Positions 3,681-48,740 are shown, numbered from the stretch's first letter. The stretch is 64,000 nt of DNA from Deltaproteobacteria bacterium (GCA_024277655.1 JAJRUT010000056.1:3683-67682), one strand, 5' to 3'. Made by a program: numbers and translations. The notes: generated by a model from the sequence alone, not told the origin.

Positions 3681-4820
3681 ATGAAAGATATTATTAAAAA
3701 ATTTAGCCTTATAGCTCTTCTTCTATGCCTGCCGTTGTCGGCTATGGCAGAAGATGGACATGGCCACGGCCACGGCCATGGCGGAGAAGAGGCGGAAGTT
3801 GAGGCGGAAGAAGAGGGTGGAGTTGAGCTTTCTGCTAGCCAAATCAGTCTTGCCGGGATCAAGGTTGCAACCCTTGACCCTCGGCCCATGACCTTTCAGG
3901 TTTATGCTCCGGGTGAGGTGCTGGCCAACGGTTACACCAGTTATCTGGTTTCGTCTCGGGTTGATTCTGTTGTCCTGCATCGCCACACCAGTCTTGGGGC
4001 CTATGTTGAGGAGGGCCAACCACTGGTAACACTGTTTAGTGATACGGTGGCTGAGGCGCAGGCCGCCTTTCGCATTGCCGATGCGGAGTATAGGCGTGTG
4101 CAGAAAATGGGACGCAAAGCGGTGGGTGAAAAACGCTTTATTCAGGCAAAAAACGATTTTGAGGTGAGCCACGGCAGGTTGCTGGCCTTTGGTTTGTCTG
4201 AGCAAGCGATCAAGGATACCAGCAAAAATAAAACACAAACGGGAGAATATACCCTGACGGCTCTGGCCCAGGGCGTGGTGCTATCCGATGACTTTCGTCA
4301 GGGACAGCGGGTTGAGGCGGGGGATCCGCTGATGGAGCTTGCCTGTGAGAAAGAGCTGTGGATTGAGGCGCGTCTTGCCCCAAGCGCCAAGGTGGTTGTG
4401 CCGGCCGGGACAATGGCTCAGGCAAAAATCGCTGGAGAAACTTTCCCTGCCAAAGTAATTCAGGAGGCACACACCATTGACGAGGTGACAAGGACTCGTA
4501 TTGTTCGTCTTTTGGTGAATAATGAGGAGCATAAACTCCATCCCGGTCAGTACGCCGATGTTTATTTTAGTTTCAGTACCGATGAAGAGGTTCTTGCCGT
4601 ACCGGAGACGGCTCTTATGCGTAGTGCTGATGGTGACTGGGTTGTTTTTGTTGAGGAGGACCCGGGCCATTTCATGCCGCACGAGGTTGATTTGGGTCGC
4701 AGTCTTGGTGCCTTTAGGGAAATAACTGGTGTACCTGCTGGCAGCCGTATTGTCATGGAAGGCGCGTTTTTTGTGGCCTCAGAGATTGCCAAATCAGGAT
4801 TTGATCCCCACGACCATTAA
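3681..4820 (+). CDS. RND efflux periplasmic adaptor (membrane fusion protein, CzcB-like) with His-Gly N-terminal tract
   Basis: Signal peptide, then 'EDGHGHGHGHGGEEAEVEAEEEGG'. Lipoyl/beta-barrel MFP layout, sited between OMF and RND pump genes. Confidence 0.9.
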   Translation: MKDIIKKFSLIALLLCLPLSAMAEDGHGHGHGHGGEEAEVEAEEEGGVELSASQISLAGIKVATLDPRPMTFQVYAPGEVLANGYTSYLVSSRVDSVVLHRHTSLGAYVEEGQPLVTLFSDTVAEAQAAFRIADAEYRRVQKMGRKAVGEKRFIQAKNDFEVSHGRLLAFGLSEQAIKDTSKNKTQTGEYTLTALAQGVVLSDDFRQGQRVEAGDPLMELACEKELWIEARLAPSAKVVVPAGTMAQAKIAGETFPAKVIQEAHTIDEVTRTRIVRLLVNNEEHKLHPGQYADVYFSFSTDEEVLAVPETALMRSADGDWVVFVEEDPGHFMPHEVDLGRSLGAFREITGVPAGSRIVMEGAFFVASEIAKSGFDPHDH

Positions 4821-4842: not shown

Positions 4843-7800
4843 ATGTTAAATCGCATTATTGATTGGGCTGTAGTGAACCGTTTATTGGTTCTTATTGCCC
4901 TGGTGACCCTAATTGCGTCATCAGTTTTTATTATTCCGAATTTAAATCTGGATGCCTTTCCGGATGTAACGAACGTCCAGGTGTCGATTAATACTGAGGC
5001 CCCCGGCCTTGCCGCCGAGGAGGTGGAACAACTCATCACCTTTCCCATTGAGGCGGTGATGTATGCCCTGCCGGATGTGGAGGAGGTTCGCTCTATTTCC
5101 AAGACAGGTTTGTCCGGGATCACAGTGGTATTTAAGGAGGGGACGGATATTTATTTTGCCAGGCAACTGGTCTTTGAACGGTTGCAGTCGGCCAAGGAGA
5201 TGGTGCCAAATGGGGTTGGAACCCCTGAGATTGGTCCGAACACCTCTGGTTTGGGTCAGGTGTATCAATACCTGCTCCTTGCCGAACCCGACTCCGGGTA
5301 TGATGCCATGTTGTTACGCAGTTTGAACGATTGGGTTGTTAAGCTTCTTCTTATGCCCGTTGACGGGGTGACCGAGGTACTGTCCTTTGGTGGAGAGGTA
5401 CGCCAGTATCAGGTGAACCTCAACCCCTCTCTTCTTTTGGCCTATGGTTTGACCCAGCAGGATGTTGTTGATGCCCTTGAACGCAACAATAACAATGCCG
5501 GTGGCTGGTATATGAACCGAGGTCAAGAACAGCTTGTTATTCGCGGAATGGGCTGGCTTGGTCATGATGAAGAGGGCCTTGAGCAGCTTCAGCAGATCCC
5601 CTTAAAGACTATTGACGGGGTGGTGGTGACGGTTGCCAACGTGGCGGAGGTAGCCTATGGCGGTGAGATTCGCCAGGGTGCTGTAACCATGACTCGGCGC
5701 GATGAAAATGGTCAAGCCGAAGGGTTGGGTGAGGTTGTCTCCGGCATTGTTATGAAACGCATGGGGTCAAACACCAAGGCTACCATTGACGGGATTAACG
5801 AAAGGGTGGAACTCATCAAACAGGCCTTGCCGGAAGGGGTCAGCTTTGAACCTTTTTACGATCAGGCTGATCTGATTTCCAAGGCGGTAAAGACGGTGGT
5901 GGATTCGCTACTTTTGGCCTTTGTTTTTATCATTATTGTCCTTGCCCTCTTTTTGATGAATCTCCGGGCTACCTTTCTGGTGCTGATATCCATTCCGATT
6001 TCAATCGGTATTGCCCTGATGGCCATGGCCTGGTTCGGGCTGTCGGCAAACCTCATGTCCCTTGGCGGTATTGCTGTGGCCATTGGTATGCTGGTTGATG
6101 GCTCGGTGGTGATGGTGGAGAATATATTCAAACATCTATCTCATCCAGATGCTGAACATGAAGAGGTCAAGCAGAAGAGACTTGCTGCCGATGATCCTGA
6201 TCCCCATGATGTGGTCCGTGATACCGGCGGTATTTCTCTGCGCTTGCAGGAGGCCGGAAAAGAGGTGGCGAGACCCATCTTTTTTGCCGGAGCCATTATC
6301 CTGGTGGTGTTTATGCCACTCTTTAGTTTTCAGGGGGTTGAGGCCAAATTATTTCAGCCCATGGCGATATCCATCATGCTTGCCATTGCCGGTGCTGTTC
6401 TTACGGCCCTTATTATTGTCCCTGCCCTTGCGACCTTTTTGTTTAAACGCGGGATTCGTGAGCGGGAAAGTCTGGTTTTAAAGCCGCTCAATTATTTGTA
6501 TAAACACGGTTTGCGCTGGGCTATGGAGCATGCAAAACTGGTTGTAATTATGGCGTTGCTGCTCATTGGTGCAGCCTTTGCACTGGTGCCACAATTGGGG
6601 ACGGAGTTTGTGCCGGAGCTTGAAGAGGGGACAATCAACCTACGGGTGACCCTTGCCCCATCCTCAAGTCTTGAGACATCCCTTACACTCAGTCCCAAAC
6701 TTGAAAAGATGCTCATGGAATTTCCTGAGGTGACCTATGCCCTCAGCAGGATTGGTCGGGCCGAGATAGGCGGTGATCCGGAGCCGGTGAATAATATTGA
6801 AATTTTTATCGGGCTTAAACCTGTTTCCCAGTGGACCAGTGCGACAAATCGCTTTGAACTGCAGGATCTTATGGAGCGCAAACTGGAACAGCATCCGGGT
6901 CTGCTCTTAAACTTTTCACAACCCATTGCCACCAGGGTGGATGAACTCCTGTCCGGGGTAAAGGCGCAGCTTGCCATTAAGCTGGTCGGCCCTGACTTGC
7001 AGATCCTGTCGACAAAGGGGGCGGAAATTCAAAAGGCGGTGCAGACGGTGAAAGGCACTAAGGAGGTGGCCATGGAGCAGATTGCCGGTGAGTCACAGCT
7101 TGTGGTTCAGCCTGATCGCCGCGCCCTCTCCCGTTACGGTCTGTCGGTTGCTGATGTTATGGATATTGTCCGTGATGGCATTGGTGGTGTTGAGGCTGGG
7201 CAGATTATTAATGGTAATGAGCGTTATGATATCTATGTTCGTCTCGGCGAGGAGTACCGCAAGACACCGGAGGCCATTGCCAATCTGATGCTTCTGTCTC
7301 CTTCAGGGGCGCAGGTCAGGCTTGGTGATGTCGCCAAGGTTTCAGTGGAATCTGGCCCACCCCAAATCAGGCGTGATGATGTCCAGCGCCGGGTGGTTAT
7401 TCAGGCCAATGTTCAGGATCGGGATATGGGTTCTGTGGTGGCTGATATCCGCAGTGCCATTGCCAGCCAGGTTAAACTGCCCCCCGGATATTCAGTGAAT
7501 ATTGGTGGCCAGTTTGAAAATCAGCAGCGGGCCCAGAAACGACTGGCCATGGTGGTGCCCATCTCCCTGGCTCTCATCGCCCTCTTGCTCTACTTTGCCT
7601 TTAATTCGGTGGGCCAGGCCATGCTTATTCTGGTGAATGTACCCCTGGCCGTTATTGGTGGTGTGTTTTCCCTGTATCTCTCTGGTCAGTACCTGTCAGT
7701 GCCAAGCTCTGTGGGTTTTATTACCCTATTCGGAGTGGCGGTATTAAACGGAGTTGTTATGGTGGAGTCGATCAATCAGCGGGTGATGGATGGTCTGGCA

Positions 7801-22616: not shown

Positions 22617-24794
22617 CTACTTTTGTAGTTTGTTGTTGGAGTGCAATTCGTCACGAAAGCCATCCATAGTTGTCTTAAATTCGTTAACATACTGGTCGAG
22701 CACCTGCTCACTTTCAATTACATACAGGGTGAGCATAATGAGGAGCTCTGTCTTCTCAATCTTCTGGGTCTCATATCTAAACAGATAGCCCAGAAGTGGA
22801 ATATCCTTCAAAAAGGGGATACCACTGTCTGACACGGTGCGATCTGTGCCAATAAGACCGCCGATCAGGATGGATTGACCATCTTTAACGGCCAATCTTG
22901 TCTTTAATTCCCGCTTTCTGATGGGAGCCGATTGTACCCCGTTTTCCGGCACCTCCATGGCCTTACTGATGGTCTGTTTGATGTCGAGGAGAATAATACC
23001 GTCATAGTTGATCTGGGGAGTAACCTCAAGGATTACACCGGTATCCTTGTACTGGATGGTCTTGTCCACCTTGTCGGCCGTGGCATTGTTTTCGGTGACC
23101 GAGGTGACAATGGGAACCTCTTCACCAACGTTGACGGTGGCCGTTTCATTGTTGAGTACCAGGACCTGGGGCGAGGAGAGGATGGACAGGTTCGTCTTGC
23201 CGGCCAGGGCGTGGAGCAGGGCGGCCACATCCTCACCGCTGTTAATCATCATGCTCAGGCCGTTGGAGATGGCATTCTCCGGGTTAAAAACGGTGGATGC
23301 TACATCCATGGTATAGCGGGTACCGTTGTTTGTGCCGAGAAGGTTATTATCGATGGCCCATTCAACTCCCATGGACAGTTCATCCTTTAGGTACACCTCG
23401 GCAACGATAACCTCCACCAGCACCTGGCGTGGCAGGTTGTCCAAGCGTTCAAGGAGTTTAACAATGCGGCTGTAGTCTGGTGGCAGGGCGCGGATCAGGA
23501 TGATATTGCGGTTGTCATCAGCGATCAGCATCGGACTGCCGGCAAAGCGCAGGGATGAAAGTGTTTTACCGAGAACCTTGTTTTTTAAGGCGGATTTCTT
23601 CTTTTTACTGTCGGATGTGGTCTTGGAGTTGGTGGCTTTTTTTGTGGTTGCACCGCCACTATCTTCTTGGATTAAACGGTTGACGAGGTTGGTTAATTCC
23701 GAGGCCACCGTATTCTTGGCGTTATAGATGTAAATATTATCCCGGTCGGAACCCACGGTGATGTCAAGCTCCTTGATCCACCGCGCCCCGTTTTCCACCA
23801 GATATTCACTGGGGCTAACCAGAAGCAGGGAGTTAACCTGGCCCAGGGGGACAATGGTTAACCCACCCTGTTTGCCCTTGTTGTTGATGTTCAGGGCATT
23901 GAAAACTTTATCAAGCTCCTCCTTGATCTCTTGAATGGGCGCATTATGAATGCGAACCAGGCGGATATTCAAGGATTCCAGCGGCGAAACGTCTAACTGG
24001 GAAAGTATGGTGAGTATATCAATGATATTGGTCTCGTAGTCGTGGATGAGGAGCCAGTTATGTGCCTCCAGTGGCTGCATTGAGCCGCTGGCTGACAGGT
24101 AGGGCTCAACCAGTTTGACACTGGCCTTTGCCTGTAGATGGAGAAGTGGCACAACCTGGAGCATGATACGGCTTGAGGGGCTGAGATTGCTAATATCCTT
24201 ACTGGTAGAAAATGTGCCTGAGTAGGGCTTTGCGCTTGGGAAAATATAACTGTGAATACCCTCATCACGCAGGTCAAGGCCGTTGATGTGGAGAATCTTG
24301 AGAAATACCTCCTTTAGTTCCGCCAGCGGAACCGGCTTGGAGGAGCGGATATTAACAACACCTTTAACATTTGGGTCAATAATATAGTTTAGGCCCAGAA
24401 GGTCACCAATGATATGGATTACTTCGTAAATGTCGGCATTATCAAAATTCAAGGTAATTGTCGGCGTATCAGGGTTGTCAGGGGGAGTTGTCTTTTCTGT
24501 ACCCCTTGTGTGGTCGATAATGTTGAGGAGATGCTGGTTTCTGGCATCGCCCTGGATTATGTTTTCCATTGTCCCCGCTTTCTGTGGGTGGGGGGTATCC
24601 CCCTTCTGTTCCATCAACACCGAACTGCGGGGTGTTTTTTCAATACGTGAACGGATATCGGCAAGGTCAATATCCCTGGTGGTGGGCATTGTCTGTGGGT
24701 CGATGGGCGCACAGCCAGAGGCGATGATGAGGCAATACAGACATAGGAGGGTTGCTGTTTGCCTAAGTTGTTTAGGGAAAGTTGATCTATACAT
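22617..24794 (-). CDS. gspD: type II secretion secretin GspD, probably lipidated
   Basis: 725 aa. N0/N1-type domains ('ITLNFDNADIYEVIHIIGDLLGLNYIIDPNVKG') and a secretin C-domain ('IPFLKDIPLLGYLFR'). The N-terminal 'LIIASGC' resembles a lipobox. Confidence 0.9.
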   Translation of the reverse strand: MYRSTFPKQLRQTATLLCLYCLIIASGCAPIDPQTMPTTRDIDLADIRSRIEKTPRSSVLMEQKGDTPHPQKAGTMENIIQGDARNQHLLNIIDHTRGTEKTTPPDNPDTPTITLNFDNADIYEVIHIIGDLLGLNYIIDPNVKGVVNIRSSKPVPLAELKEVFLKILHINGLDLRDEGIHSYIFPSAKPYSGTFSTSKDISNLSPSSRIMLQVVPLLHLQAKASVKLVEPYLSASGSMQPLEAHNWLLIHDYETNIIDILTILSQLDVSPLESLNIRLVRIHNAPIQEIKEELDKVFNALNINNKGKQGGLTIVPLGQVNSLLLVSPSEYLVENGARWIKELDITVGSDRDNIYIYNAKNTVASELTNLVNRLIQEDSGGATTKKATNSKTTSDSKKKKSALKNKVLGKTLSSLRFAGSPMLIADDNRNIILIRALPPDYSRIVKLLERLDNLPRQVLVEVIVAEVYLKDELSMGVEWAIDNNLLGTNNGTRYTMDVASTVFNPENAISNGLSMMINSGEDVAALLHALAGKTNLSILSSPQVLVLNNETATVNVGEEVPIVTSVTENNATADKVDKTIQYKDTGVILEVTPQINYDGIILLDIKQTISKAMEVPENGVQSAPIRKRELKTRLAVKDGQSILIGGLIGTDRTVSDSGIPFLKDIPLLGYLFRYETQKIEKTELLIMLTLYVIESEQVLDQYVNEFKTTMDGFRDELHSNNKLQK

Positions 24795-24801
24795 TGGGGT
24801 T

Positions 24802-25479
24802 TTATTTTCTCACAGGGGCACTGTCTTTAGGTGGTGCTATTTTGTTTATTCTGCGGGTAGTTTGCTTGGCTCGGGGTGGTGTGGTCTTTCTGATTTTCTT
24901 CCCGGTTGGTGCCGGACGTTTTTTTTCGGTGGAAAAGAGATCCTTGGTCACTGTATGGCTACCACGGGTGAAGGTGACTTGCAAGGGTTCAACTTCACTT
25001 ACGGTGTAACCGCCGATGGACTCGCCAAGACTTATAATTTGGGAGGTCCGGTCTGATTTTGCCTGGGTTCCGGGGTTATTCGCCCTGCTTGTGGTTTTGT
25101 TTATTCTGGTTGCGGTTCTGGCAGTTTTGCCATTGGTGTAGGAAATCAAGGCCTTGCGGCTGGCACCGACTATAATTGAGCCATTATATTGCAGGCTCTC
25201 CATATTGATCTTTTGGCCATTATGGTCATTAACGCTTGTGCTCGCTGACTTTCTGAATCGTTCACTGTTAAACAGATATCCTTGGTTCAGGTTGGGTAGG
25301 GGCTGTGTGATTTTTGGATTAAGGCTGAGAGTGATGGTTTTTTTCAGGCTGGGTTTTCTTGTCTCAGGTTTGGACTGGCCTGGGACAGCATCATCTTGTC
25401 CATGGTGCTGTCCCAGGCCGAGCGCCCATAACGGTAGCAATGCTACCAGGATAAAGATGAAAATTTGCCTTGGTCTCAT
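24802..25479 (-). CDS. GspC/PilP-like secretin-associated protein with basic Pro/Lys/Thr tail
   Basis: N-terminal TM 'IFIFILVALLPLWALGLG'. Beta-rich core 'YNGSIIVGASRKALISY...LGESIGGYTVSEVEPLQVTFTRG' resembles the PilP/GspC HR domain. Sits immediately upstream of gspD. Confidence 0.45.
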   Translation of the reverse strand: MRPRQIFIFILVALLPLWALGLGQHHGQDDAVPGQSKPETRKPSLKKTITLSLNPKITQPLPNLNQGYLFNSERFRKSASTSVNDHNGQKINMESLQYNGSIIVGASRKALISYTNGKTARTATRINKTTSRANNPGTQAKSDRTSQIISLGESIGGYTVSEVEPLQVTFTRGSHTVTKDLFSTEKKRPAPTGKKIRKTTPPRAKQTTRRINKIAPPKDSAPVRK

Positions 25480-26061
25480 TTATTTACGCCCCAGAGTTTT
25501 AGTAAGCCAATTTGACGAGGGCTGATAATAGGCGCGGAGATCCATGTATATCTTTAGTTTGTCCTGCTGAAACGGTTTTATGGTGAGTCCTTCTATGTGA
25601 AAGAAGGATCTGTTTCTGTAGATGGCAACCAAAAAGGAGATGAACTGATCCATGTCGCCGTTTAATCTTAGTTTTAGTACCACGGATGGCAAGGTGTTTG
25701 TAATTGCTCTTGAGTTTACCGGCCGTAGTGATTCCGGTTCAAGCCCTGATTTTTGTAGCATTGCTTGCACCTTTATCTGCATCTCGGAGGTAACGGTATC
25801 CTGATCATTGTCTTTGAAAAGAGCCTGCTCGATCTGGCCAATCTGCTGTTTCTGCTGTTTGACCTGAAAGCGTAGGCCGTGCAGTTTGCGGACGTTTTTT
25901 TGATCCACAAAGATCTGTTGCTCCAGGTCATCCAACCTTGCGACCATATTGTTGTAGGTGGAAAGAAGAAAGGCCATAAGGGCAATAGCCGTAAGCAGTC
26001 CTGCGGTAAGGAGGAGGAGGGCCTGTTGCGAGCGAAATTGGTTGGGGATAAGGCGGCTCAT
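25480..26061 (-). CDS. GspM/PilO-like inner-membrane assembly protein
   Basis: Single TM 'ALLLLTAGLLTAIALMAFLL', a coiled coil and a ferredoxin-like C-terminus, positioned after the GspL-like gene. Confidence 0.5.
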   Translation of the reverse strand: MSRLIPNQFRSQQALLLLTAGLLTAIALMAFLLSTYNNMVARLDDLEQQIFVDQKNVRKLHGLRFQVKQQKQQIGQIEQALFKDNDQDTVTSEMQIKVQAMLQKSGLEPESLRPVNSRAITNTLPSVVLKLRLNGDMDQFISFLVAIYRNRSFFHIEGLTIKPFQQDKLKIYMDLRAYYQPSSNWLTKTLGRK

Positions 26062-27182
26062 TTGGGCAGTACCTCGATCTTGAAATAGGTCTGGTTGCGC
26101 CGTTTGTGGGTGGACTCAAGGGTTGCGTTGCCGATGGCCTGGAGGCTGGTGGTCAGTGCCCCAAGGTCGCTGGTATAGCCCTGGATGTGGATGGCACCTG
26201 TCTTTTTATCAAGGCGTAACTGGTCAAGGTGGGAGCTGAACGGCAGATTTTGAGAAAGGTTGGCAAAGAGGGCGATCAGGTTTGTGTTTTTAGCGATGTT
26301 GGCGTAGCCTTTTAATTTTATTGCCTGGCGGGCCTGTTGTTTGTTTAGCTTTTTTAATTCGCTAAGCTGGGGGGCCATTTTCTGGCGGGAAGCCTCAATC
26401 TGGTGAATCTGACCCTGGAGACTGAAAAAGTTCATGCCAAACCAGCCAAGCCCCAGAAGAAGATTTAGGGTGAGGAGGCCAAGGAGGAGCCATTTGCCGT
26501 AATCCGTGCGACGAAAGGTCTTGGGTAACAGATCAAAGTCAAGAGGCGCGCCGGGGGGCGAGGGCTGGGCCTTTAGATTGGTGATGTCCTGGATGAATTC
26601 CAGGCCATAGGTTTTTTTCAGCATCTGCTGGTCAGGTTGTCCAGAGAGTTGCAGTCGCTCTGTGACATGACCTGCCTTGAATATCGTCAGCTTATTGAAC
26701 AGGCCACTGCTGATGAGGCCCCAGTTCTTTTTGCGGTTCTTTGAGCTCAGCCCCTGTTGGCTTTCGGGGTACATGCCGTATATACGGTGGCCCAGGCCGA
26801 TAATGGTTTCCAGAATAGGGAGCATGATCCGCTGATCGCTGAGGTAGAGCGCAACATGGATAGCGTCTTTGGCGTGCTGGATATCATAGGCATAGAGACA
26901 GTTTTCGCCAAAGGGAGAGATTATGTCCATTTGCAGTTGTAGGGCTTTTTTTATATTCGGGGTCTGTTTGGGGAGCTTGATGCGGGTAAAGTAGAGGAGG
27001 TCGTCGCTTAGATAAATTGTTATCGGGCGTCCTGCCAAGTTGGCATGTTGTTTACTGAAGGCGGAAAATTGCTGGGCAAACTCAGCAGGAGACTGAGTAA
27101 ACTCTACACTGTTGCCTGTCTGCTTCATATCACAGAGAACAATCTGTCCTTTGCCTATGAGAAGATCTATGCCAGCATTCAA
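26058..27182 (-). CDS. GspL-like (PilM-PilN fusion-type) assembly protein, TTG start
   Basis: Cytoplasmic domain of about 230 aa, TM 'WLLLGLLTLNLLLGLGWFGMNFF', then a PilN-like periplasmic part. AAGGA lies 8 nt upstream of the TTG at 27182. ATGA overlap with the next gene. Confidence 0.55.
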   Translation of the reverse strand: MNAGIDLLIGKGQIVLCDMKQTGNSVEFTQSPAEFAQQFSAFSKQHANLAGRPITIYLSDDLLYFTRIKLPKQTPNIKKALQLQMDIISPFGENCLYAYDIQHAKDAIHVALYLSDQRIMLPILETIIGLGHRIYGMYPESQQGLSSKNRKKNWGLISSGLFNKLTIFKAGHVTERLQLSGQPDQQMLKKTYGLEFIQDITNLKAQPSPPGAPLDFDLLPKTFRRTDYGKWLLLGLLTLNLLLGLGWFGMNFFSLQGQIHQIEASRQKMAPQLSELKKLNKQQARQAIKLKGYANIAKNTNLIALFANLSQNLPFSSHLDQLRLDKKTGAIHIQGYTSDLGALTTSLQAIGNATLESTHKRRNQTYFKIEVLPK

Positions 27183-27251
27183 AACGATTATCCTTATGGT
27201 GAGTTTGGGGTGATAGGGTGGTAATATCTTATCACCCCGATATTACCTGCT

Positions 27252-27280
27252 ATTATTGCCATAAAGGGGAGTTTAGTCAA
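27252..27280 (-). promoter_or_regulatory. candidate sigma-70 promoter for the gspL-M-C-D-G block
   Basis: Minus strand reads TTGACT (27280-27275), 17-nt spacer, AATAAT (27257-27252). The predicted transcript start falls at the edge of the interleaved repeats. Confidence 0.35.
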
Positions 27281-27584
27281 TGACGAAACCGCTGTGGCTT
27301 GCTGTTGTCTAAAGTAGTGAAATATGGGTTTCCCTTGAGGTTAAAGGCGTTGCTGGCGATAATTTGCTGATGCCCCAGTTGTTGGGGCTGGAGAGAGGGG
27401 GGATTCTTGGGCCAAAGCGGTTTTTATTTGCCGGTATATTGTTGGTTCAATCCTCTCGTGCTACTTGTTATGGTATGTGACGAGGTCAGGTGTTCGTTGT
27501 CGGGGAAAGTGACTAAAAAACGTCTTTTTGTGTTAGGTGTATGGTTTTTTTACCTGTTGCTACAGTTAAAAAACGGTGGTTTCT

Positions 27585-27896
27585 TCACTCCAGCGCAAAT
27601 AGTGGAATCTGGAACCCTTGGCTGAGAGTAACAGTCTGATAGTGCATCCTGGGTGGATCTTCTTGGGGACTTGTTCTTCTTTCTGCTCCGCTCTTTCCTG
27701 CGTGACTCCTCCAAATGGTGTGATATGTGTTTTTGTCTTTGGGGTAAACCAGGTGGGGTTGCCACAGGTGGTACTGGTCGTCGAGGATAAGCTGGGCTTC
27801 CGTTGCGCTGAGCAGAAGTTGGCTTTTTTTGAATTCATAATACTGGTCGATCTTCTCGTCATTATGACCGGTCATAATTTCGGGTTTGCAGTTCAT
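27585..27896 (-). CDS. doubtful hypothetical ORF at the position where gspK would be expected
   Basis: ATGA overlap with the upstream pseudopilin gene, but no prepilin motif and no recognisable domain. Two other frames are open over the same bases. Confidence 0.25.
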   Translation of the reverse strand: MNCKPEIMTGHNDEKIDQYYEFKKSQLLLSATEAQLILDDQYHLWQPHLVYPKDKNTYHTIWRSHAGKSGAERRTSPQEDPPRMHYQTVTLSQGFQIPLFALE

Positions 27897-28210
27897 CTGT
27901 TTGGTACCAGGATAAGGCTTTCCACCCGGCTTTTCTTTTGGTGGATCAGCTGATAGCGCCGTCCTTCAAGAAAAATTTCCCCATCCGGGATATCCCCATC
28001 AACATTAGTAAAAAAAAGGGGGGTGGCCAGAATAGTTTGTTCGACCTCAAGCAAGCGCTGATAGTGGCGATCAAGTTTACTGATCCGACCCATGGATGTT
28101 GAAAAACTTTCAAGGATAGCCACATAGGCAATGGATAACAGAAGCATGGCGGCCAGCACCTCAATGAGGGTAAAGCCCTGTTTGTCAGGAATTTCAACCA
28201 TGGCTATCAT
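27893..28210 (-). CDS. minor pseudopilin, GspI-like
   Basis: Prepilin motif 'QGFTLIEVLAAMLLLSIAYVAILE'; about 100 aa. Confidence 0.7.
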   Translation of the reverse strand: MIAMVEIPDKQGFTLIEVLAAMLLLSIAYVAILESFSTSMGRISKLDRHYQRLLEVEQTILATPLFFTNVDGDIPDGEIFLEGRRYQLIHQKKSRVESLILVPNR

Positions 28211-28742
28211 CCTCGAGCTGTTTTAGGCACATGGGATAAAAACGGTACTCTTTGCCCGCCAGGACAAGGGTGACGAGACTTGAATCCTCCCCGGTGTACA
28301 GTTGAAATGGCTTATCTGTCTTCAGGAGAGGGATCATATCGTCCTGTGGTGGGAAATTGTCGTTGTAGTCAGGGTTGTAAAAGTCGCGCCGCTCGGTGTA
28401 GTACAGGGTTCCGGTATCTGGGTCAAACTCGTAGAAGGCAAGAATCAGGGAGGCTGCGGGATACATGATGGAGCTTGTGGTGATGACGGAGAACTGTTGG
28501 TCTGATAGTTGGTTGATATTGGGGCTTTTCGTGGCGGGATCAATCCACGCTCCCTGTACCTGGCGGCGGACGAGGAGCGTCAGGTTGTAGTGCTGTTCAA
28601 GTTTTCTGACCTGTTCTTCACCCTTGGTGGTGAATAGGGCTGAGCGGTCGAGAATGGAAAAGATGAGTACCGATATCATACTGAAGATAAGAATGGAGAT
28701 CATCACCTCCAGGAGGGTAAGCCCACGTTGATCCGGTGTCAT
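28194..28742 (-). CDS. minor pseudopilin, GspJ-like
   Basis: Prepilin motif 'RGLTLLEVMISILIFSMISVLIF'; 182 aa. Confidence 0.65.
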   Translation of the reverse strand: MTPDQRGLTLLEVMISILIFSMISVLIFSILDRSALFTTKGEEQVRKLEQHYNLTLLVRRQVQGAWIDPATKSPNINQLSDQQFSVITTSSIMYPAASLILAFYEFDPDTGTLYYTERRDFYNPDYNDNFPPQDDMIPLLKTDKPFQLYTGEDSSLVTLVLAGKEYRFYPMCLKQLEDDSHG

Positions 28743-29179
28743 TTATTTTTCCCCTTTTTATAGGGACGACCGGTGAGAGGATCAATGAGAATGGTTTGGC
28801 TCAGGTTGTTACGCGAAAGAGTCAGGGTTGCCGGGCGACCCCAGCCCTGGGGGGAGAAGTATAGCTCTTCTGGTTGTAGTTTCAGGTTGGTGTCAGGGTG
28901 AAATTGTAACTCTTCAAAGATGGGCTCCCCGCCCTGAATCGTGATTATAAACTGCGGGTCTGCAAAAGATACCGTAATGGGTTTGCCACAGCTTATGGCT
29001 CTGAGCTTGAAACCACGTAGTTTGGCCATGAGGGTACGACCATCTTTTTTAAACTGGTTTTTACGCATGGAGTTGCCAAAGCTTGGGAGGGCAAGGGTTG
29101 TGCATATCGCCAGGATGACAAGGATTGCCATCAGTTCAACCAGGGAAAACCCCTTATTATGATGAGTCTTTTTGGGCAT
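28739..29179 (-). CDS. minor pseudopilin, GspH/FimT-like
   Basis: Prepilin motif 'KGFSLVELMAILVILAICTTLALPSF'; 146 aa. Confidence 0.7.
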   Translation of the reverse strand: MPKKTHHNKGFSLVELMAILVILAICTTLALPSFGNSMRKNQFKKDGRTLMAKLRGFKLRAISCGKPITVSFADPQFIITIQGGEPIFEELQFHPDTNLKLQPEELYFSPQGWGRPATLTLSRNNLSQTILIDPLTGRPYKKGKNK

Positions 29180-30396
29180 TAGATAATATCATTCATGCTG
29201 AGAATAACCGAAAGCATGGATAGGACAATGGTACCTACCCCGGCGGCCATAATAAGGATAAAGGCTGGTTCAATAACGGCGATTAGGTTTTTGACTGAGT
29301 TGCGCAACTCCCCTTCAAAATGATTGGCAATTTGACCGCAGACCTTGCCAATCTGTCCCGATTCTTCCCCCATGGCCAGTAGGTCCACTGCCAGATCATC
29401 AATCAGTTCCCCCTGAAGTTTCGGAGCCACGGCCTGGCCCTCCTTCAGGGCGGTGGTGGCTCGGATAAGCAGCTCACGGTAGCGTGGGTTGGTTACAACT
29501 CCACTTGAAATTTTAAGGGCAGTGACCAGGTGGACGCCGTTATTCACCAGAACCTCAAGGGTATGGAAAATCCTGGTGGTTTCAAGATTGCGAATGAGAG
29601 TGCTTAGAACCGGTAGTTTCAAGGCGGTATCCGCTACAATTTGCTTAATCTTGGGGGAGCGGTAGAGGTAGGTTCCGGTTGCCGGGGGCAGAAGCAGGAG
29701 GAGCAGGGAAAAAAACGGATGGCTGGTTAAAAAGGTGGATATCGCCATGAGGATAATGATGTTGAGGGGCAGTTCCTGGTCAAGCCCGGCAAACAGGGTC
29801 TCAAAACGGGGCATGATACCGAGAAGAAGCGCCATAATAATCCCGAAACCGGCCACAGCCAGAAAGATCGGGTAGATGGCACTTGAAATAACAAACTGTT
29901 TCAACTCTCTGGCTTCATCTTGACTTTGAGCGATTTTTATCAACATTTCCGGTAAGGCCCCACCCTCCTCGCCAGCCCGGACAATATTAACATACATCGA
30001 AGAGAATAGAGGCTCCTCGGCCAGGGCTTCAGATAGAGAGCCGCCCTCTTTGATTTTGGTTTCAAGGCGCAGGATAAAGGCTTGAACTGCGGGTTTTTTG
30101 GCCTGCTTATGCAGGGTACGTAGGGCACCATCCAGTGATTTGCCACTGTCCACCAGCAGGGCCAGTTGTTTGGTGACAAAGCTGATGTCTGTTTGGTTTA
30201 GTTTTTTGTTATGGATGAAGTCTGCCAGGGAAAAGGCGTGTTTTTTACGAAGTTTATAGGGCAGGATAGAGACCGGTCGTATCCCCTGTTGTAGTAACTT
30301 CCTCTTGACCTCATCTTCATTAGGGGCCTGACTGATGCCTTCAAGAACCTCATCGTTGCGGGTGCCGCTATACTTAAACATGCGTGGCGGCCTCAC
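29179..30396 (-). CDS. gspF: type II secretion inner-membrane platform protein GspF
   Basis: 405 aa with a duplicated T2SF domain and three TM segments, positioned after gspE. Confidence 0.9.
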   Translation of the reverse strand: MRPPRMFKYSGTRNDEVLEGISQAPNEDEVKRKLLQQGIRPVSILPYKLRKKHAFSLADFIHNKKLNQTDISFVTKQLALLVDSGKSLDGALRTLHKQAKKPAVQAFILRLETKIKEGGSLSEALAEEPLFSSMYVNIVRAGEEGGALPEMLIKIAQSQDEARELKQFVISSAIYPIFLAVAGFGIIMALLLGIMPRFETLFAGLDQELPLNIIILMAISTFLTSHPFFSLLLLLLPPATGTYLYRSPKIKQIVADTALKLPVLSTLIRNLETTRIFHTLEVLVNNGVHLVTALKISSGVVTNPRYRELLIRATTALKEGQAVAPKLQGELIDDLAVDLLAMGEESGQIGKVCGQIANHFEGELRNSVKNLIAVIEPAFILIMAAGVGTIVLSMLSVILSMNDII

Positions 30397-32053
30397 GGGT
30401 TATGCGTAGCACTTCGGTCATGGAGGTAAGGCCCTGTTCCACCTTGCTTACGCCATCGTTAAACAGGGTGTGAAATCCTGATTGAAAGGCGGCCTGGGTT
30501 AATTCTTCAAGGTCGGCCCGGCGTGAGATAAGGCTGGCAATTTGGGGCGATATGCTGAGCAGTTCGTAGATTCCCACCCGACCGGAGTAGCCAGTTTGGC
30601 TGCAATCAGGGCACCCTTCCCCTTGTTGTAAGGGGAAGTCACGGCCCGCTGGCAATTGATCCAGATATTCGGAGGCCATCCCTCGGCTGATCCGGCAATT
30701 CGGACAGATCCGCCGAACCAGACGTTGGGCGAGGATGCCCCGTAGGGCCGATGAAATCAGGAATCGCTCCACGCCGATGTCGATCAGGCGAATGACAGCG
30801 GACAGGGCATCGTTGGTGTGGAGGGTGGAGAAAACCAGGTGACCGGTGAGGGAGGATTGGACAGCAATTTCCGCCGTTTCAAGGTCGCGAATCTCACCAA
30901 TCATAATCACATCTGGATCCTGACGGACAATGGCCCGCAGTCCCTTGGCAAAGGTCAGGCCAACCTCGGTCTGTACCTGAATCTGATTGATGCCGTGGAG
31001 TTGGTATTCCACCGGGTCTTCCACGGTGATGATCTTGTTTGAGCCGTTATTGATCTGATTGAGGGCGCAGTATAGGGTGGTAGTTTTGCCGGAACCGGTG
31101 GGGCCTGTGACCAGAACAATGCCGTTTGGTTGTTTGATGATGGACTGGAATGATTCCTCGATGGCGGAGGGCATGCCGAGACGACTCAGATCCAGAATAA
31201 CGTTCTCCTTTTCAAGGATACGAATGACCACTCCTTCGCCATGGATGGTGGGTAGGGTGGAGACGCGCAAGTCAATCTCTTTGCCACTGAGGCGCATGGA
31301 TATCTTACCGTCCTGGGGGACACGGCGCTCGGCAATATCAAGGGTTGCCAGCAGTTTTATTCTGGAGACGATTGCGGCCTGCATGGAGCGGAGCGGGGTT
31401 TCATGCTCGTACAGGATGCCGTCAATCCGAAAACGGATCACCTGCCCGGATTCAAAGGGTTCAATATGAATATCAGAGGCCCGTCGGGACACGGCGGTAT
31501 CAATAAGATTATTGACGTATTTAATGACTGGTGCTTCCGAGGCCATGTCCTTTAGCCGATCAATATCCGATTCTTCAAGAAACAGCTCATCCTCTTTGTG
31601 GTCGGTGAGTTTCAGGTCGTAATGCTCATCACAAAGTTTTTCGAGGTTGGCGGGTAGGGTAAGCTGGATAATGGGGCGGAATTCAGGATAGGAGTTTTGG
31701 CTGCAAATCTCCGCAGCTGACAGGGTTTCGTGGTTGCCCATATCAGCAAAAAGTATGATGAGAATATCTATCCGTTGAATAAGGCAGAAGAGGTGCTGGC
31801 GATGAAACTCCTGGCCGAGGTCAATTGCCAGAAAGATGTCGTCATCCTCCGGTTGATAGAGCGACAGGTTAAGGAGAGTGGCCTTGGTGGTAAGGACATC
31901 CTCTTCACTTAAAAAGCCGAGGGAGAGGAGAATCTCCGGCAGTTGCTGCGAGGACGACTCGAGGTGGGAGATGGCGCGGTCAAGTTTTGATTGGCTCAGC
32001 CTGCCGGTTTCCACCAGAAGGGAGCCAAAGGCTTTGTTGTCAAAAAGACTCAC
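30374..32053 (-). CDS. gspE: type II secretion ATPase GspE
   Basis: Walker A 'GPTGSGKTTT', Walker B 'VIMIGEIRD', His box 'LTGHLVFSTLHTND', tetracysteine 'CPNC...CPDC', and a T2SSE_N-type N-terminus. Confidence 0.92.
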   Translation of the reverse strand: MSLFDNKAFGSLLVETGRLSQSKLDRAISHLESSSQQLPEILLSLGFLSEEDVLTTKATLLNLSLYQPEDDDIFLAIDLGQEFHRQHLFCLIQRIDILIILFADMGNHETLSAAEICSQNSYPEFRPIIQLTLPANLEKLCDEHYDLKLTDHKEDELFLEESDIDRLKDMASEAPVIKYVNNLIDTAVSRRASDIHIEPFESGQVIRFRIDGILYEHETPLRSMQAAIVSRIKLLATLDIAERRVPQDGKISMRLSGKEIDLRVSTLPTIHGEGVVIRILEKENVILDLSRLGMPSAIEESFQSIIKQPNGIVLVTGPTGSGKTTTLYCALNQINNGSNKIITVEDPVEYQLHGINQIQVQTEVGLTFAKGLRAIVRQDPDVIMIGEIRDLETAEIAVQSSLTGHLVFSTLHTNDALSAVIRLIDIGVERFLISSALRGILAQRLVRRICPNCRISRGMASEYLDQLPAGRDFPLQQGEGCPDCSQTGYSGRVGIYELLSISPQIASLISRRADLEELTQAAFQSGFHTLFNDGVSKVEQGLTSMTEVLRITREAATHV

Positions 32054-32460
32054 AGGTAGTTCTCTCGGGTTAGTGGCTTGATACTAAGTGATTTTGCGGA
32101 CTCTTTTTTAGTTGTATAACAGATTACAGGTGGCGGAGCCAATTTTTCTTAAGCCATCCTATGGCAGCGGTGTTCAGAGATGGGCATCTTGGCGAACATC
32201 CCGTAAATACAAGAAAAATATAGATTAAACCAACCAATAGGCCTTTTTAGGCTTCTGCTTGACCTGCACCAATGTCCCTGTTAGATATGTGACATGTTGC
32301 CACATGTGGCGATTGCGCTCGGGGGCGGTGTTGAGTGTTTTATGGCTTTGGAATACCAGACTCCTTATGGTACCTATCGTGTTTTGTCGAGGGGTGCTGC
32401 ATTCTGTCTGAAAAACGAAGACATGGTACTGGTTGCAGAACTAACAGGTGGCATTTTCCC

Positions 32461-33162
32461 ATGAAAGAACGTTGTCAGGATTGTAGTCTAAAGCAGATTA
32501 TCGGCACGTCACAGGCCACCCAGGATCTTCTTGTCGAGATGCAGGTCATTGCCGGGGCTGGGGTTGATACGGTCTTGGTGACGGGTGACTCTGGTACGGG
32601 TAAGGAGCTTGTTGCCGGTCATCTGTATAAACTTATGAGTAAGGGGCACAATACTCCTCTTGTTCGGGTGAACTGTGCGGCCTTGCCGGAGGCGCTCCTT
32701 GAAGAGGAATTGTTTGGCCATAGCAAAGGGGCGTTCACCGATGCCAGATGTGATAAAAAGGGACTGTTTGAGCTTGCTGACGGGGGATGTCTGCTCCTTG
32801 ATGAAATTAAGGACAATGCCCCATCCTGTTCCGAGTGTCATGACGGTTCGGGTCAGACTCCGGATGGAACCAAAATGGTTCCCTTTGCTGCTCTTGGCTA
32901 CCAGTCCTTTCCAACCAGTGCGATGTGTTCTCTCTGTCACGAGAGTGAGAGTATGAACTGGGATGATATGCACGCCAAACATGTGGAAGATAAGGGTCTT
33001 GACTGTGTGTCCTGTCATACTACACCACCCACCGGGCTTAGGGCATCCCGCCTGAGCCTCTGTGCCGACTGTCACGACTATGAGTCCGAGACCGATTCGC
33101 AGAATATCCATAATAAGCATGTGAAGGAGAGTATCGGTTGCGCAACCTGTCATACCTTCTAG
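32461..33162 (+). CDS. chimeric ORF: N-terminal half of a sigma-54 activator AAA+ domain fused in frame to a 5xCxxCH cytochrome c-like domain (possible fusion pseudogene)
   Basis: The first part reads 'IIGTSQATQDLL...VLVTGDSGTGKELVAGHLY...LFGHSKGAFTDA...GGCLLLDEI' (Walker A to Walker B). From about 32809 it switches to 'KDNAPSCSECH..CSLCH..CVSCH..CADCH..CATCH'. No signal peptide. The open frame extends upstream to a GTG at 32335. Confidence 0.5.
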   Translation: MKERCQDCSLKQIIGTSQATQDLLVEMQVIAGAGVDTVLVTGDSGTGKELVAGHLYKLMSKGHNTPLVRVNCAALPEALLEEELFGHSKGAFTDARCDKKGLFELADGGCLLLDEIKDNAPSCSECHDGSGQTPDGTKMVPFAALGYQSFPTSAMCSLCHESESMNWDDMHAKHVEDKGLDCVSCHTTPPTGLRASRLSLCADCHDYESETDSQNIHNKHVKESIGCATCHTF

Positions 33163-33347
33163 TTTAATCCGGAAGGTTTGCTATAAAAGGGTCTGGGGAT
33201 TGTTCCCCCGGACCCTTTTTTGTTTGTTGGCACTGCTGTATGTTTCTTTTTCCATGACATAGTTGCTTCTTGTTTGGTATGACTTCCCTGTAACCTGTTG
33301 TAATTATTCAAGGCACTCATAATGAATATTTCTGGTGTAGGTGGATT

Positions 33348-34043
33348 ATGTCTTCTTTTGTGAAAGTAAAGGCGATGGTGCCTGTTTGCATGCTGTTTTT
33401 TTTGTGTATGCTCCCCGGGGCGGGGTTTGCCAAGGGCGCGCTTAAACCGGTGTGGCTCACCTTTAGCCATGGGGATTGTCCCGATGGTTATCAGGTTAAA
33501 ATTAGAGGTGACCGCCCTTTCAAGGTGGACAATCATTTTTTGATTGCTGATCCGCCACGGCTTGTGGTGGATGTTGCCAATGCCAAGGTGGGGAAAAATA
33601 TATATATCAAAGTGGATCAGCCCGAGATAACCATGATCCGGGTGGCCAACCGAGAGCAAAGGGTGCGGGTTGTCCTGGATTTACCAAAAGACTCAAGCCA
33701 GAAGTATAAGTTTGTTGAGAAAGATCATAGGGTTATCGTTACCCTCTTGGCTGAGAAGTCTGCCGCCGCTAAAGCGCAAATTGCAAATTCTTCCGATTTG
33801 CCCGATGGTTATGTGTCAATCCAACTGCACAGGGCTGAACTGACAGATTTTTTTGCCATTATCTCCAAATCCTCCGGTCAGCGCATTGATGTGGATGAGT
33901 CGCTCAAAACACCGATTTCCCTGCGTCTGGTTAATGTCAGGTGGCAGGACGCCCTGGCCCAGGTACTTAAATTATACTCCCTTGATGTTGAAGAGCAGGA
34001 GGGACGTTGGTATGTCCATTCAGGGCGTGAAGCGCTAAAATAG
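33348..34043 (+). CDS. AMIN domain + secretin N0/STN-like domain protein lacking a secretin core
   Basis: Signal peptide. AMIN-like region 'FLIADPPRLVVDVANAKV...ITMIRVANREQRVRVVLDL'. C-terminal 'VSIQLHRAELTDFFAIISKSSGQRIDVDESLKTPISLRLVNVRWQDALAQVLKLYSL'. Confidence 0.6.
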   Translation: MSSFVKVKAMVPVCMLFFLCMLPGAGFAKGALKPVWLTFSHGDCPDGYQVKIRGDRPFKVDNHFLIADPPRLVVDVANAKVGKNIYIKVDQPEITMIRVANREQRVRVVLDLPKDSSQKYKFVEKDHRVIVTLLAEKSAAAKAQIANSSDLPDGYVSIQLHRAELTDFFAIISKSSGQRIDVDESLKTPISLRLVNVRWQDALAQVLKLYSLDVEEQEGRWYVHSGREALK

Positions 34044-47033: not shown

Positions 47034-48740
47034 ATGTCCCCGAAAATAACCCTCCTTATACTCATGCTTGTTGTACTGGCTCTTATCATGAAGGAAAACA
47101 TGACCAAGAGGCCAGATCAGCTCTATGTGACCACCACGGGTCAGGTGGAGATGTGTCTCTCCTGTCACACCACTGAAAGGCTTGATGTCGCCCATGATAC
47201 CAAGGTGCTTGGCTGTTCCACCTGTCATCTGGGGGATGCCCTGGCGATTGATAAAGGCATGGCCCATAAGGGGATTGTTGTTAACCCCGGTGATCTGCGG
47301 GTGGTGGAGAGGACCTGTGGGGTTGAGGGGTGTCATGCGGCGGATGTGAAAAAGGTCAAGAACTCCCTGATGGCAACCAACCGTGGGATTTTGGCGACTT
47401 TACGCTATTACTGGAAGGAGGCTCCCGATCAAAACGGGATGTTTTCGGTGGAGCAACTTTTAGAGAGCGGTGAGACGTCGCTCGCCATTGATTATTATCG
47501 TAAGCTCTGCGGTACCTGTCATCTCTGGAAAAAACGGGGTGATTTGCCCGGTTTCTTTGGTGAGAAAGGTGGAGGGTGTACGGCCTGTCATTATCAGAAG
47601 GATGACGAGGGGCTATCCCCGGCTGAGGCAAAAAAGATCCATCCCAAGATCACCAAAAAAGTCCCCATGAAGAATTGTATCCGCTGTCATAATCGTTCGG
47701 GTCGTATCGGTATTTCCTACACCGGTATCTACGAGTCGGAGAATTATGGTACTCCGTATGAGGATGGTGGGATGAGTTCCAAAGAGTTGCCCGGCAATCG
47801 CTATTATCTGGAGATAACCGAAGACATTCATCATAAGAAGGGCATGACCTGTATTGATTGCCATACCCGGAATGAAATCATGGGTGATGGCACCATGTAC
47901 GCCCATTATGAGGAGCAGGTTGAGATTAAATGTGCGACCTGCCATACCACCGGTGATGTTGGTGTCACTCGCAAGGGTGAAAAATTAAATAATGTAACAC
48001 CTCAGGGCGAGAGCTATGTTCTGAAGAATAAATTAACTGAAAAACTGTACCCGCTCAATCCCCCTAAGTCAGGGGTGTGTGATTTTTCCGGTCATGATCG
48101 TCTGTCCTGTGATTCCTGCCATGCCTCATGGGTGCCACAATGTTATGGTTGCCATGTGAAGTATGATCGCAGTGAAACCGATCTTGATAAGTTGACCATG
48201 GAACAGACGGAAGGGTGGTGGAGTGAGGGACGGTCATATATTCGTTATGAACGCCCCATCCTTGCCGTTTGGGGCAAGAGGGTGGTCATTGTCACCCCTG
48301 GATGTCAGGATATTATTACCCTGCTTGATGAAAATGGTGGCGAGGATAAACAGTTTAGCTCGTTTACCATGGCGGCGATCAGTCCCCATACCACGCAACT
48401 TAAAGGCCGGTCATGCTCGGAGTGTCATACCAACACTAAGGTCATGGGTCTTGGTGAGGGACGGGTGTGGCGTGAGGATGGCACGTGGAAGTTTGCCGGT
48501 ATTGACCAAGGTGTTGAGATTGCGGAGGGTCTCAGCCCTCCCCTTGATGCCTTTGTTGATATCGAGGGGAAACAACTGCAACGGGGTTCAAGGGCTGACT
48601 TACGGCCCTTTAACAAGGATGAACTTGGACGTATTCTGCGGGTTGGCCTGTGTCTAGAGTGTCACTCCGACTACACCGATAAGGCATGGAAGGGCTATAA
48701 GCCTGATACGGTTTGTCCTAAATGGCAGGAAGGGAAGTGA
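47034..48740 (+). CDS. membrane-anchored multihaem cytochrome c (11 CxxCH + 1 CxxxxCH)
   Basis: N-terminal TM 'ITLLILMLVVLALIM'. Motifs: CLSCH, CSTCH, CGVEGCH, CGTCH, CTACH, CIRCH, CIDCH, CATCH, CDSCH, CYGCH, CSECH, CLECH. Confidence 0.85.
   Translation: MSPKITLLILMLVVLALIMKENMTKRPDQLYVTTTGQVEMCLSCHTTERLDVAHDTKVLGCSTCHLGDALAIDKGMAHKGIVVNPGDLRVVERTCGVEGCHAADVKKVKNSLMATNRGILATLRYYWKEAPDQNGMFSVEQLLESGETSLAIDYYRKLCGTCHLWKKRGDLPGFFGEKGGGCTACHYQKDDEGLSPAEAKKIHPKITKKVPMKNCIRCHNRSGRIGISYTGIYESENYGTPYEDGGMSSKELPGNRYYLEITEDIHHKKGMTCIDCHTRNEIMGDGTMYAHYEEQVEIKCATCHTTGDVGVTRKGEKLNNVTPQGESYVLKNKLTEKLYPLNPPKSGVCDFSGHDRLSCDSCHASWVPQCYGCHVKYDRSETDLDKLTMEQTEGWWSEGRSYIRYERPILAVWGKRVVIVTPGCQDIITLLDENGGEDKQFSSFTMAAISPHTTQLKGRSCSECHTNTKVMGLGEGRVWREDGTWKFAGIDQGVEIAEGLSPPLDAFVDIEGKQLQRGSRADLRPFNKDELGRILRVGLCLECHSDYTDKAWKGYKPDTVCPKWQEGK

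Follow-up and report, generated by a model that had tools for sequence, protein, structure and literature searches.

What is a reading frame that opens as the ATPase of a sigma-54 activator and closes as a multiheme cytochrome c: a new protein, an error of assembly, or the remains of something larger? Such a frame lies on the plus strand of the window, by which we mean the whole 64-kb stretch of deltaproteobacterial DNA that was analyzed. The ORF at 32335–33162 exists as originally predicted and mechanically encodes 275 aa, but its true start is probably not the GTG at 32335. Initiation at ATG 32461 would give a product of 233 aa, which is P0001 in the protein database; the 42 codons that begin with the GTG (32335–32460) fall in the leader of a kinase gene and are probably not translated. 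We consider the ORF to be a fusion pseudogene, the scar that deletions left of a three-gene unit of kinase (HK), regulator (RR), and cytochrome, with a probability of about 0.82.

The domain content of the ORF is that of two truncated proteins. Residues 55 to 161 match Pfam Sigma54_activat (PF00158) over profile positions 1 to 105 of 168 (E 1.8e-32), and the last ~110 residues match Pfam Cytochrome_C7 and Cytochrom_c3_2; the HMM coverage check proposed with the original prediction thus returned a partial AAA+ domain followed by multiheme profiles. All matches to the NCBIfam bEBP models (NorR, NifA, NtrC, AtoC, and others) end at ORF residue ~160. As had been predicted, the AAA+ fragment ends right after Walker B, the ORF contains no HTH (there is no HTH_8 match, and the frame enters cytochrome sequence at 32809), and five CxxCH motifs, confirmed by their coordinates, follow the switch to KDNAPSCSECH at that position. 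The predicted lack of a signal peptide was borne out as well, the product beginning with MKERCQDCSLKQIIG, a cytoplasmic AAA+ sequence.

Both Walker motifs of the regulator fragment were found where they had been placed. The claim that the GAFTGA loop is absent did not hold: the loop is retained between Walker A and Walker B as GAFTDA, a form shared by 82 of the 112 close homologs. In bEBPs the motifs follow one another as Walker A, switch Asn, L1 (GAFTGA), Walker B, L2, sensor 1, arginine fingers, and sensor 2 (PMC7175178, Figure 3 legend). With Sigma54_activat covered from 1 to 105 of 168, the fragment, read against this order, is without L2, sensor 1, arginine fingers, sensor 2, and lid, and no match to AAA_lid_14 was found in the ORF with Pfam. 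What is present of the AAA+ alpha/beta subdomain is its N-terminal portion, from Walker A to Walker B. No Response_reg match was found either, and homology to regulators begins at regulator residue ~132 to 135. Over product residues 10 to 116, amino acid identity to the regulators P0004 to P0008 is 68 to 78%. The bEBP regulators matched are ~460 aa long and come from Desulfobulbales and Thermodesulfobacteriota MAGs, a clade of which the GAFTDA form of L1 is typical. The product shares its Walker A–Walker B stretch with NtrC-family bEBPs such as AtoC, ZraR, and NtrC (REC, Sigma54_activat, AAA_lid_14, and HTH_8) but, unlike them, has no REC domain, none of the parts that follow Walker B, no HTH, no cognate kinase, and no nearby sigma-54 promoter. 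By its sequence, the regulator part is a fragment of the bEBP family and not a member of it.

The cytochrome part was originally likened to a small periplasmic cytochrome in its mature form, but what the ORF carries is heme site 8 plus the four-heme tail of a twelve-heme protein of ~575 aa. In a tblastn search, the remnant matches residues 455 to 578 of the cytochrome at locus L002. Its amino acid identity is 78 to 79% to the C terminus of the L003 protein and 50 to 68% to other members, and its closest homologs are the C termini of proteins that measure from 574 to at least 729 aa. The five CxxCH motifs are in register with motifs 8 to 12 of the cytochromes of L002, L003, and L027 and of P0002 and P0003. 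Full-length relatives carry twelve CxxCH motifs and cleavable-looking Sec signal peptides, with N termini that read MNRFFKLSLAAAAISLIYTGPPLFA... and MKTALLTATAVLMMSGSGAAA... Residues ~35 to 452 of these relatives match TIGR04315 (OTR) with E values of 4e-69 to 3e-71, and the same N-terminal part matches PDB 1SP3, the Shewanella oneidensis OTR (E 4.5e-43). Because the TIGR04315 scores, at 234 to 241 bits, lie below the 375-bit cutoff, we regard the full-length cytochromes as an OTR-related subfamily and not as bona fide OTR.

The parent protein has an OTR-like octaheme domain of ~420 residues and a four-heme C-terminal extension, ~575 aa in all. Of the five CxxCH motifs in the remnant, the first is heme site 8 of the OTR-like domain and the rest lie in the extension, so the breakpoint falls inside the catalytic domain. 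Compared with twelve-heme OTR-family cytochromes, the remnant is without signal peptide, hemes 1 to 7, and catalytic region, and retains the last 117 of ~575 residues. It resembles small tri- and tetraheme c7/c3 cytochromes (PF14522, PF14537, PF02085) in CxxCH density and matches their profiles weakly (PF14522 scores 27.3 bits, with its cutoff at 24.8). Stand-alone c7/c3 genes, in contrast, encode ~70 to 130 aa with a signal peptide and three to four hemes, whereas closer homologs show the remnant to be the C-terminal end of a large cytochrome.

The arrangement from which such a frame could arise is preserved in relatives. L002 (GCA_018819365.1) and L027 (GCA_039715015.1) encode, on one strand, a HAMP-HisKA-HATPase kinase, a regulator, and a multiheme cytochrome of 574 to 578 aa; the cassette is thus intact on two independent contigs, and the separate regulator and signal peptide-bearing cytochrome that the original prediction expected of relatives are present in both, in the same order. 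A third locus, L024, covers the left flank: pseudopilin, T2SS-F, and T2SS-E genes are followed by a divergent kinase and regulator. Window positions 28375–32056 (T2SS genes) align with L024 3–3687 at 76% nucleotide identity over 3.7 kb, 32277–32352 (an intergenic block between gspE and the kinase gene) with 3962–4037, and 32470–32808 (the regulator part) with 5954–6292 at 74% nucleotide identity. The divergent orientation of the ORF relative to gspE, also predicted, was confirmed. For the right flank the comparison uses L028, a 1.1-kb contig and the only one matched by the AMIN protein in the metagenome scan. Here the cytochrome ends in ...VKKNIACTSCHTF and a stop codon, followed by a hairpin terminator and an AMIN gene, the same order as in the window at 33139–33162, 33185–33219, and 33348–34043. 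Collinearity of the left flank with L024 and of the right flank with L028 implies that the flanks of the ORF are at their ancestral places. None of the missing parts (kinase, REC domain, regulator C terminus, cytochrome N terminus) turned up anywhere in the 64-kb window. The best matches suggest a Desulfobulbales- or Desulfurivibrionaceae-like lineage.

Within this collinear frame, the predicted product is composed of HK residues 1 to 3, RR residues 134 to 247, and the last 117 aa of the cytochrome, in frame throughout. Junction 1 joins HK codon ~3 to RR codon ~134, with a loss of 1813 bp (~1.8 kb) in L024 coordinates. After ATG AAA, the window reads GAA CGT TGT CAG, which corresponds to regulator codons ~134 to 137; at the protein level, the kinase has MKKRF, the regulator RKRCQ, and the window MKERCQ. 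The site carries ~7 bp of microhomology, visible in L002, which has AAACGTT both at HK codons 3 to 5 and at RR codons 134 to 136. Microhomology of the AAACGTT type is of the kind that mediates slippage or illegitimate recombination. The loss at junction 1 is 3n+1, as the offset of one between the kinase and regulator frames requires. Upstream of the junction the kinase leader is kept (GAACTAACAGGTGGCATTTTCCC in the window, GAACGAACAGGTCACCTTTCCCT in L024), and the final ~26 nt before the window ATG match the L024 HK leader, GAACnAACAGGT...CCC-ATG. A decayed REC remnant upstream of the ATG was considered and rejected: the alignment of window 32347–32460 with RR residues 107 to 131 is gappy and of low quality, and at the DNA level the segment aligns as kinase leader.

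Junction 2 reads ...CTC CTT GAT GAA ATT / AAG GAC AAT GCC CCA TCC TGT and joins RR codon 247 (L-L-D-E-I) to cytochrome codon ~455 (K-x-N-A-P-S-C); at the corresponding cytochrome site, codon ~455, L002 has HGVDPK/SSAPSC. It is in frame and shows at most ~1 bp of microhomology. Measured on L002 the loss amounts to 2410 bp, and on L027 to 2463 bp. An ancestor with the longer, L003-type N terminus would have lost more than this; for the window lineage we put the loss at ~2.4 to 2.9 kb. The ancestral sequences at the breakpoints can only be inferred, because the closest intact relatives are just ~74 to 79% identical. The peptides that span the junctions in the product are MKERCQDCSLK and LLLDEIKDNAPSCSECH. 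Table 1 lists the features of the locus from left to right.

Table 1. Features of the fused locus and its immediate neighbors, in window coordinates.
Feature	Position	Strand	Evidence
gspE (T2SS ATPase), intact divergent left neighbor	30374–32053	−	Pfam T2SSE, E 2.6e-141
gspE–HK intergenic region and leader of the lost kinase gene, retained	32054–32460	+	L024 alignment
Promoter-like TTGACC-N17-TAGATA, with TG before it	32259–32287	+	Position conserved in L024 (TTGACC-N17-TACAGA)
10-bp palindrome CCACATGTGG, within the conserved leader block	32300–32309		Chance-level
Junction 1: kinase ATG AAA, then crossover zone (G)AACGTT	32461–32473	+	Codon listing
Regulator remnant, RR residues ~135–247	32470–32808	+	PF00158 1–105/168; L024 alignment
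Walker A, GDSGTGKE	32584–32607	+	Motif scan, homolog comparison
L1-loop signature, GAFTDA	32728–32745	+	Motif scan, homolog comparison
Walker B, LLLDEI; final regulator-derived codons	32791–32808	+	Alignment, codon listing
Junction 2: ...GAT GAA ATT / AAG GAC AAT...	32808–32809	+	Alignment, codon listing
Cytochrome remnant, last 117 codons and stop, heme motifs 8–12	32809–33162	+	tblastn, alignment
CxxCH motifs	32827 (CSECH), 32926 (CSLCH), 33004 (CVSCH), 33061 (CADCH), 33139 (CATCH)	+	Motif scan
Intrinsic terminator-like hairpin and T-run, retained from the cytochrome gene	33185–33219	+	L028 equivalent
AMIN/STN-domain gene, intact right neighbor	33348–34043	+	Pfam AMIN, E 1.2e-9; STN

Expression signals of the kinase gene are still present. 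TTGACC-N17-TAGATA is a candidate promoter of the kinase operon; a consensus promoter scan omitted it, its −10 hexamer matching at just 3 of 6 positions. An RBS-like AGGTGG is retained before ATG 32461. In relatives, sigma-54-like −24/−12 elements lie ~200 bp upstream of the cytochrome start, TGGTAC-N5-TTGCA in L002 and CGGCAT-N5-TTGCA in L027. The pattern YGGYAY-N5-TTGCA, defined post hoc, occurs once in each of these two loci and not at all in the 64-kb window. Where the cassette is intact, the kinase–regulator pair probably drives the cytochrome gene via sigma-54.

A perfect palindrome, CCACATGTGG, had been singled out just upstream of the ORF. It is present, but it is not notable: the window holds 38 perfect 10-bp palindromes, against ~62 expected from its length alone, and L024 carries an imperfect CCACACCTGG at the palindrome position. 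A role as an operator was therefore rejected, the frequency being at chance and the palindrome not conserved in L024.

These observations can be assembled into the following course of events. The ancestor would have carried gspF and gspE on the minus strand and, divergently on the plus strand, genes for a HAMP-HisKA kinase, an NtrC-type REC-AAA+-HTH activator, and a Sec-exported twelve-heme cytochrome. The cytochrome gene would probably have had a sigma-54 promoter on which that regulator acted, with the terminator and the AMIN-domain gene downstream. One deletion of ~1.8 kb, which began at kinase codon ~4, reached regulator codon ~134, and fell within the AAACGTT-type microhomology, would have removed the kinase and REC and placed the AAA+ fragment behind the kinase leader and start. 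Another of ~2.4 to 2.9 kb would have taken out the segment that starts with regulator codon 248 and ends with cytochrome codon ~454. Either could have arisen by illegitimate recombination or replication slippage. With both deletions in frame, a 233-aa ORF would result, extending from the kinase ATG (32461) to the cytochrome stop and terminator. The kinase promoter and RBS that were kept may still drive its expression, which would then yield an unstable junk polypeptide.

The fusion product is most likely nonfunctional. In bEBPs, arginine fingers complete the active site of the neighboring subunit. The AAA+ piece ends after Walker B and is without L2, sensor 1, these trans-acting fingers, sensor 2, and lid, so by the bEBP mechanism (PMC7175178) it should form no ATPase ring and hydrolyze no ATP in one. 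It should likewise receive no signal, since REC is missing, and bind no enhancer, since the HTH is missing. On the cytochrome side, covalent c-type heme attachment (Ccm-type) takes place outside the cytoplasm, in the periplasm. This machinery cannot reach a cytochrome piece that has no signal peptide.

Has the remnant begun to decay? It deviates at 3 of the 39 columns that are conserved at 95% or more, namely the junction residue, an E-to-D change in Walker A, and an H-to-Y change. The second of these turns GESGTGKE into GDSGTGKE at a position where 110 of 112 homologs have E, and the third affects a His conserved at 96%. Intact homologs show a mean of 0.4 such deviations, and 6 of 112 reach three. 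Tajima-type relative-rate tests, which are underpowered here, counted more changes specific to the window than to the nearest intact relatives (13 versus 7 and 12 versus 6), an excess that was not significant. None of the five CxxCH motifs is damaged and the conserved His residues are intact, so there is no positive evidence of long neutral decay. Either the deletions are fairly recent or the decay tests are underpowered.

Among other explanations, a simpler course would be a single deletion that joined the regulator to an adjacent small periplasmic cytochrome. In relatives the regulator and cytochrome genes are indeed next to each other on one strand, and L002 and L027 strongly support the original prediction that deletion fused same-strand neighbors. 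That prediction stands with two deletions and three source genes in place of one deletion and two: the regulator part also lacks its first ~133 codons and starts with the leader and start of the kinase gene, which requires a second deletion, and the cytochrome source was a ~575-aa twelve-heme OTR-like protein and not a small c7/c3. The single-deletion model is refuted on these points, and we rank it last in probability. Better placed, although still improbable, is an assembly or binning artifact, in which an intact locus lost ~4.3 kb in two pieces during assembly or polishing, or a minority deletion variant was captured from a mixed population. It gains from the rarity of the fusion. Among 5.8 billion proteins no second fusion of PF00158 with a cytochrome was found, P0001 standing as a one-member cluster from one contig, apparently of 87,631 bp; the other strong protein matches are either ~460-aa REC-AAA+-lid-HTH_8 regulators, at up to 73 to 78% identity over the stretch in common, or cytochrome-only proteins (P0002, P0003), and a scan of genome contigs returned no second fusion. 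The flanks and all three remnants are nevertheless collinear with relatives, so contigs of separate origin were not joined here. Sequence shared at the breakpoints amounts to ~7 bp at one and at most 1 bp at the other, far short of the overlap at which any de Bruijn or overlap assembler collapses sequence, and neither is bridged by a repeat. An artifact would also take two independent internal collapses within 350 bp, and in an unrelated assembly (L001) this gene has left a similar remnant with an internal deletion.

If the deletions are real, might the product have acquired a function? It could be a new cytoplasmic protein, either an AAA+ poison or anti-activator, which would disturb the rings of paralogous bEBPs by way of its remaining half with Walker A, L1, and Walker B, or a Cys/His-rich metal-binding or redox-sensing polypeptide. 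The locus retains what expression would need, with native leader, RBS-like AGGTGG, ATG, stop, and terminator in place and both junctions in frame, much as a new gene under selection would; the CxxCH motifs and GAFTDA are intact, and no significant rate acceleration was seen. Against this, no more than one record has the architecture, the AAA+ alpha/beta sheet is cut midway, after the Walker B strand, so that stable folding is doubtful, covalent c-type heme would need an export for which the signal peptide is absent, and two near-invariant positions are substituted. Chance alone would put both junctions in frame 1 time in 9, and it was as an open frame that the ORF came to notice. We judge a functional new protein very unlikely. 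Slightly less credible still is a newborn chimera expressed from the kinase promoter, whose half-AAA+ domain would cap or enter the rings of paralogous activators in a dominant-negative manner while its tail bound metal or noncovalent heme; were it true, de novo domain recombination would have been caught in the act. The fusion pseudogene left by two deletions resembles known fusion pseudogenes formed by microhomology deletion in its collinear flanks, loss of essential parts, short microhomology, and restriction to a single lineage. It differs from the usual case slightly, in that two in-frame deletions occurred and that both the upstream start signals and the downstream stop and terminator were kept.

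Ordinary gene decay accounts for the feature, which is an instance of a well-known phenomenon. Its main value lies in annotation hygiene: the 233-aa ORF, present in public protein collections under its Sigma54_activat and cytochrome domains, should carry a pseudogene or remnant flag and should not be taken for a new redox-sensing sigma-54 activator. It also indicates that this lineage lost a two-component-regulated, probably sigma-54-dependent OTR-like twelve-heme cytochrome that relatives keep beside the T2SS cluster, a small addition to what is known of the respiratory and sulfur-/nitrogen-oxyanion repertoire of Desulfobulbales. A literature search on OTR in Desulfurivibrio returned nothing specific to the HK-RR-cytochrome cassette. 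The locus is a curiosity, a clean case of two microhomology-type deletions that yield an in-frame three-gene chimera. It opens no long-standing question.

The same cytochrome has left a second, independent remnant, at L001. There, residues ~137 to 202 abut residues ~386 to 574 in a different frame, the result of an internal deletion that was out of frame; the cytochrome N terminus is missing, and neither a kinase nor a regulator accompanies the remnant. This decayed copy implies that decay of this cytochrome gene by deletion recurs.

Internal deletion has degraded the twelve-haem cytochrome gene in at least two lineages, because an independent remnant of the same gene is found in another organism (Logan SRR12682491; L001:9762-10471). 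There, a junction at nt 9959 places cytochrome residues ~137-202 (frame 3) directly against residues ~386-574 (frame 2). This remnant lacks the N-terminus and a signal peptide, and neither the kinase nor the regulator lies upstream of it. The protein called on this locus (P0002, 156 aa) consists of the cytochrome tail only.

In two relatives with an intact kinase-regulator-cytochrome locus (L002 and L027), the cytochrome gene is preceded by a sigma-54-type -24/-12 element, the sole match in each locus to a pattern chosen post hoc. These elements suggest that the cytochrome is the target of the regulator. Between gspE and the kinase, an intergenic block (window 32259-32352) is conserved in the relative's locus L024 (3944-4037). 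Within this block lie TTGACC-N17-TAGATA and an imperfect inverted repeat whose sequence is TGTGACA-N3-TGCCACA in the window and TGTGTCA-N3-TGCCACA in L024. The block may act as promoter and operator of the kinase operon, or it may instead serve gspE on the opposite strand.

Features of the locus, its surroundings and its relatives
Feature	Position	Remarks
Sigma-54-type -24/-12 element TGGTACTGCTCTTGCA	L002:3421-3436	~200 bp upstream of intact cytochrome gene
Sigma-54-type -24/-12 element CGGCATTACTCTTGCA	L027:11682-11697	~200 bp upstream of intact cytochrome gene
Type II secretion cluster	window 22617-32053; L024:1-3735	Complete-looking; directly adjoins kinase-regulator-cytochrome locus in both
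Secretin GspD	window 22617-24794	Member of type II secretion cluster
AMIN and STN domain protein	window 33348-34043; L028:200-856	Directly downstream of cytochrome terminator
Multihaem cytochrome, 568 aa	window 47034-48740	Resembles ExtM of selenite/tellurite reduction operon (NF040943)

The secretion cluster also includes a GspM-like gene, pseudopilins, GspF and GspE. In Shewanella, MtrC and OmcA are exported by type II secretion, and by analogy a functional link, with this system exporting the large multihaem cytochrome, is conceivable. On the other side, the adjacency of the cytochrome 3′ end and the AMIN and STN gene is kept in a JGI metagenome contig (L028; 69% amino acid identity), and the encoded protein may be secretin-associated or a type II secretion or type IV pilus accessory protein.

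The Desulfurivibrionaceae cytochrome homolog (L003:31-650) has a long additional N-terminal region with two tandem Cys/Asp-rich repeats of ~48 aa each (PPPTCADNDNDGYTAASCGGTDCND.NAAINPGASEVCGDGVDQDCSGADLLC). In L027, a MopE-like copper-binding gene (PF11617) lies downstream of the cytochrome. The ExtM-like cytochrome elsewhere in the window matches NF040943 with an E value of 7.5e-90 and 302 bits, below the 800-bit cutoff; matches to ExtN and ExtO fall in its C-terminal part.
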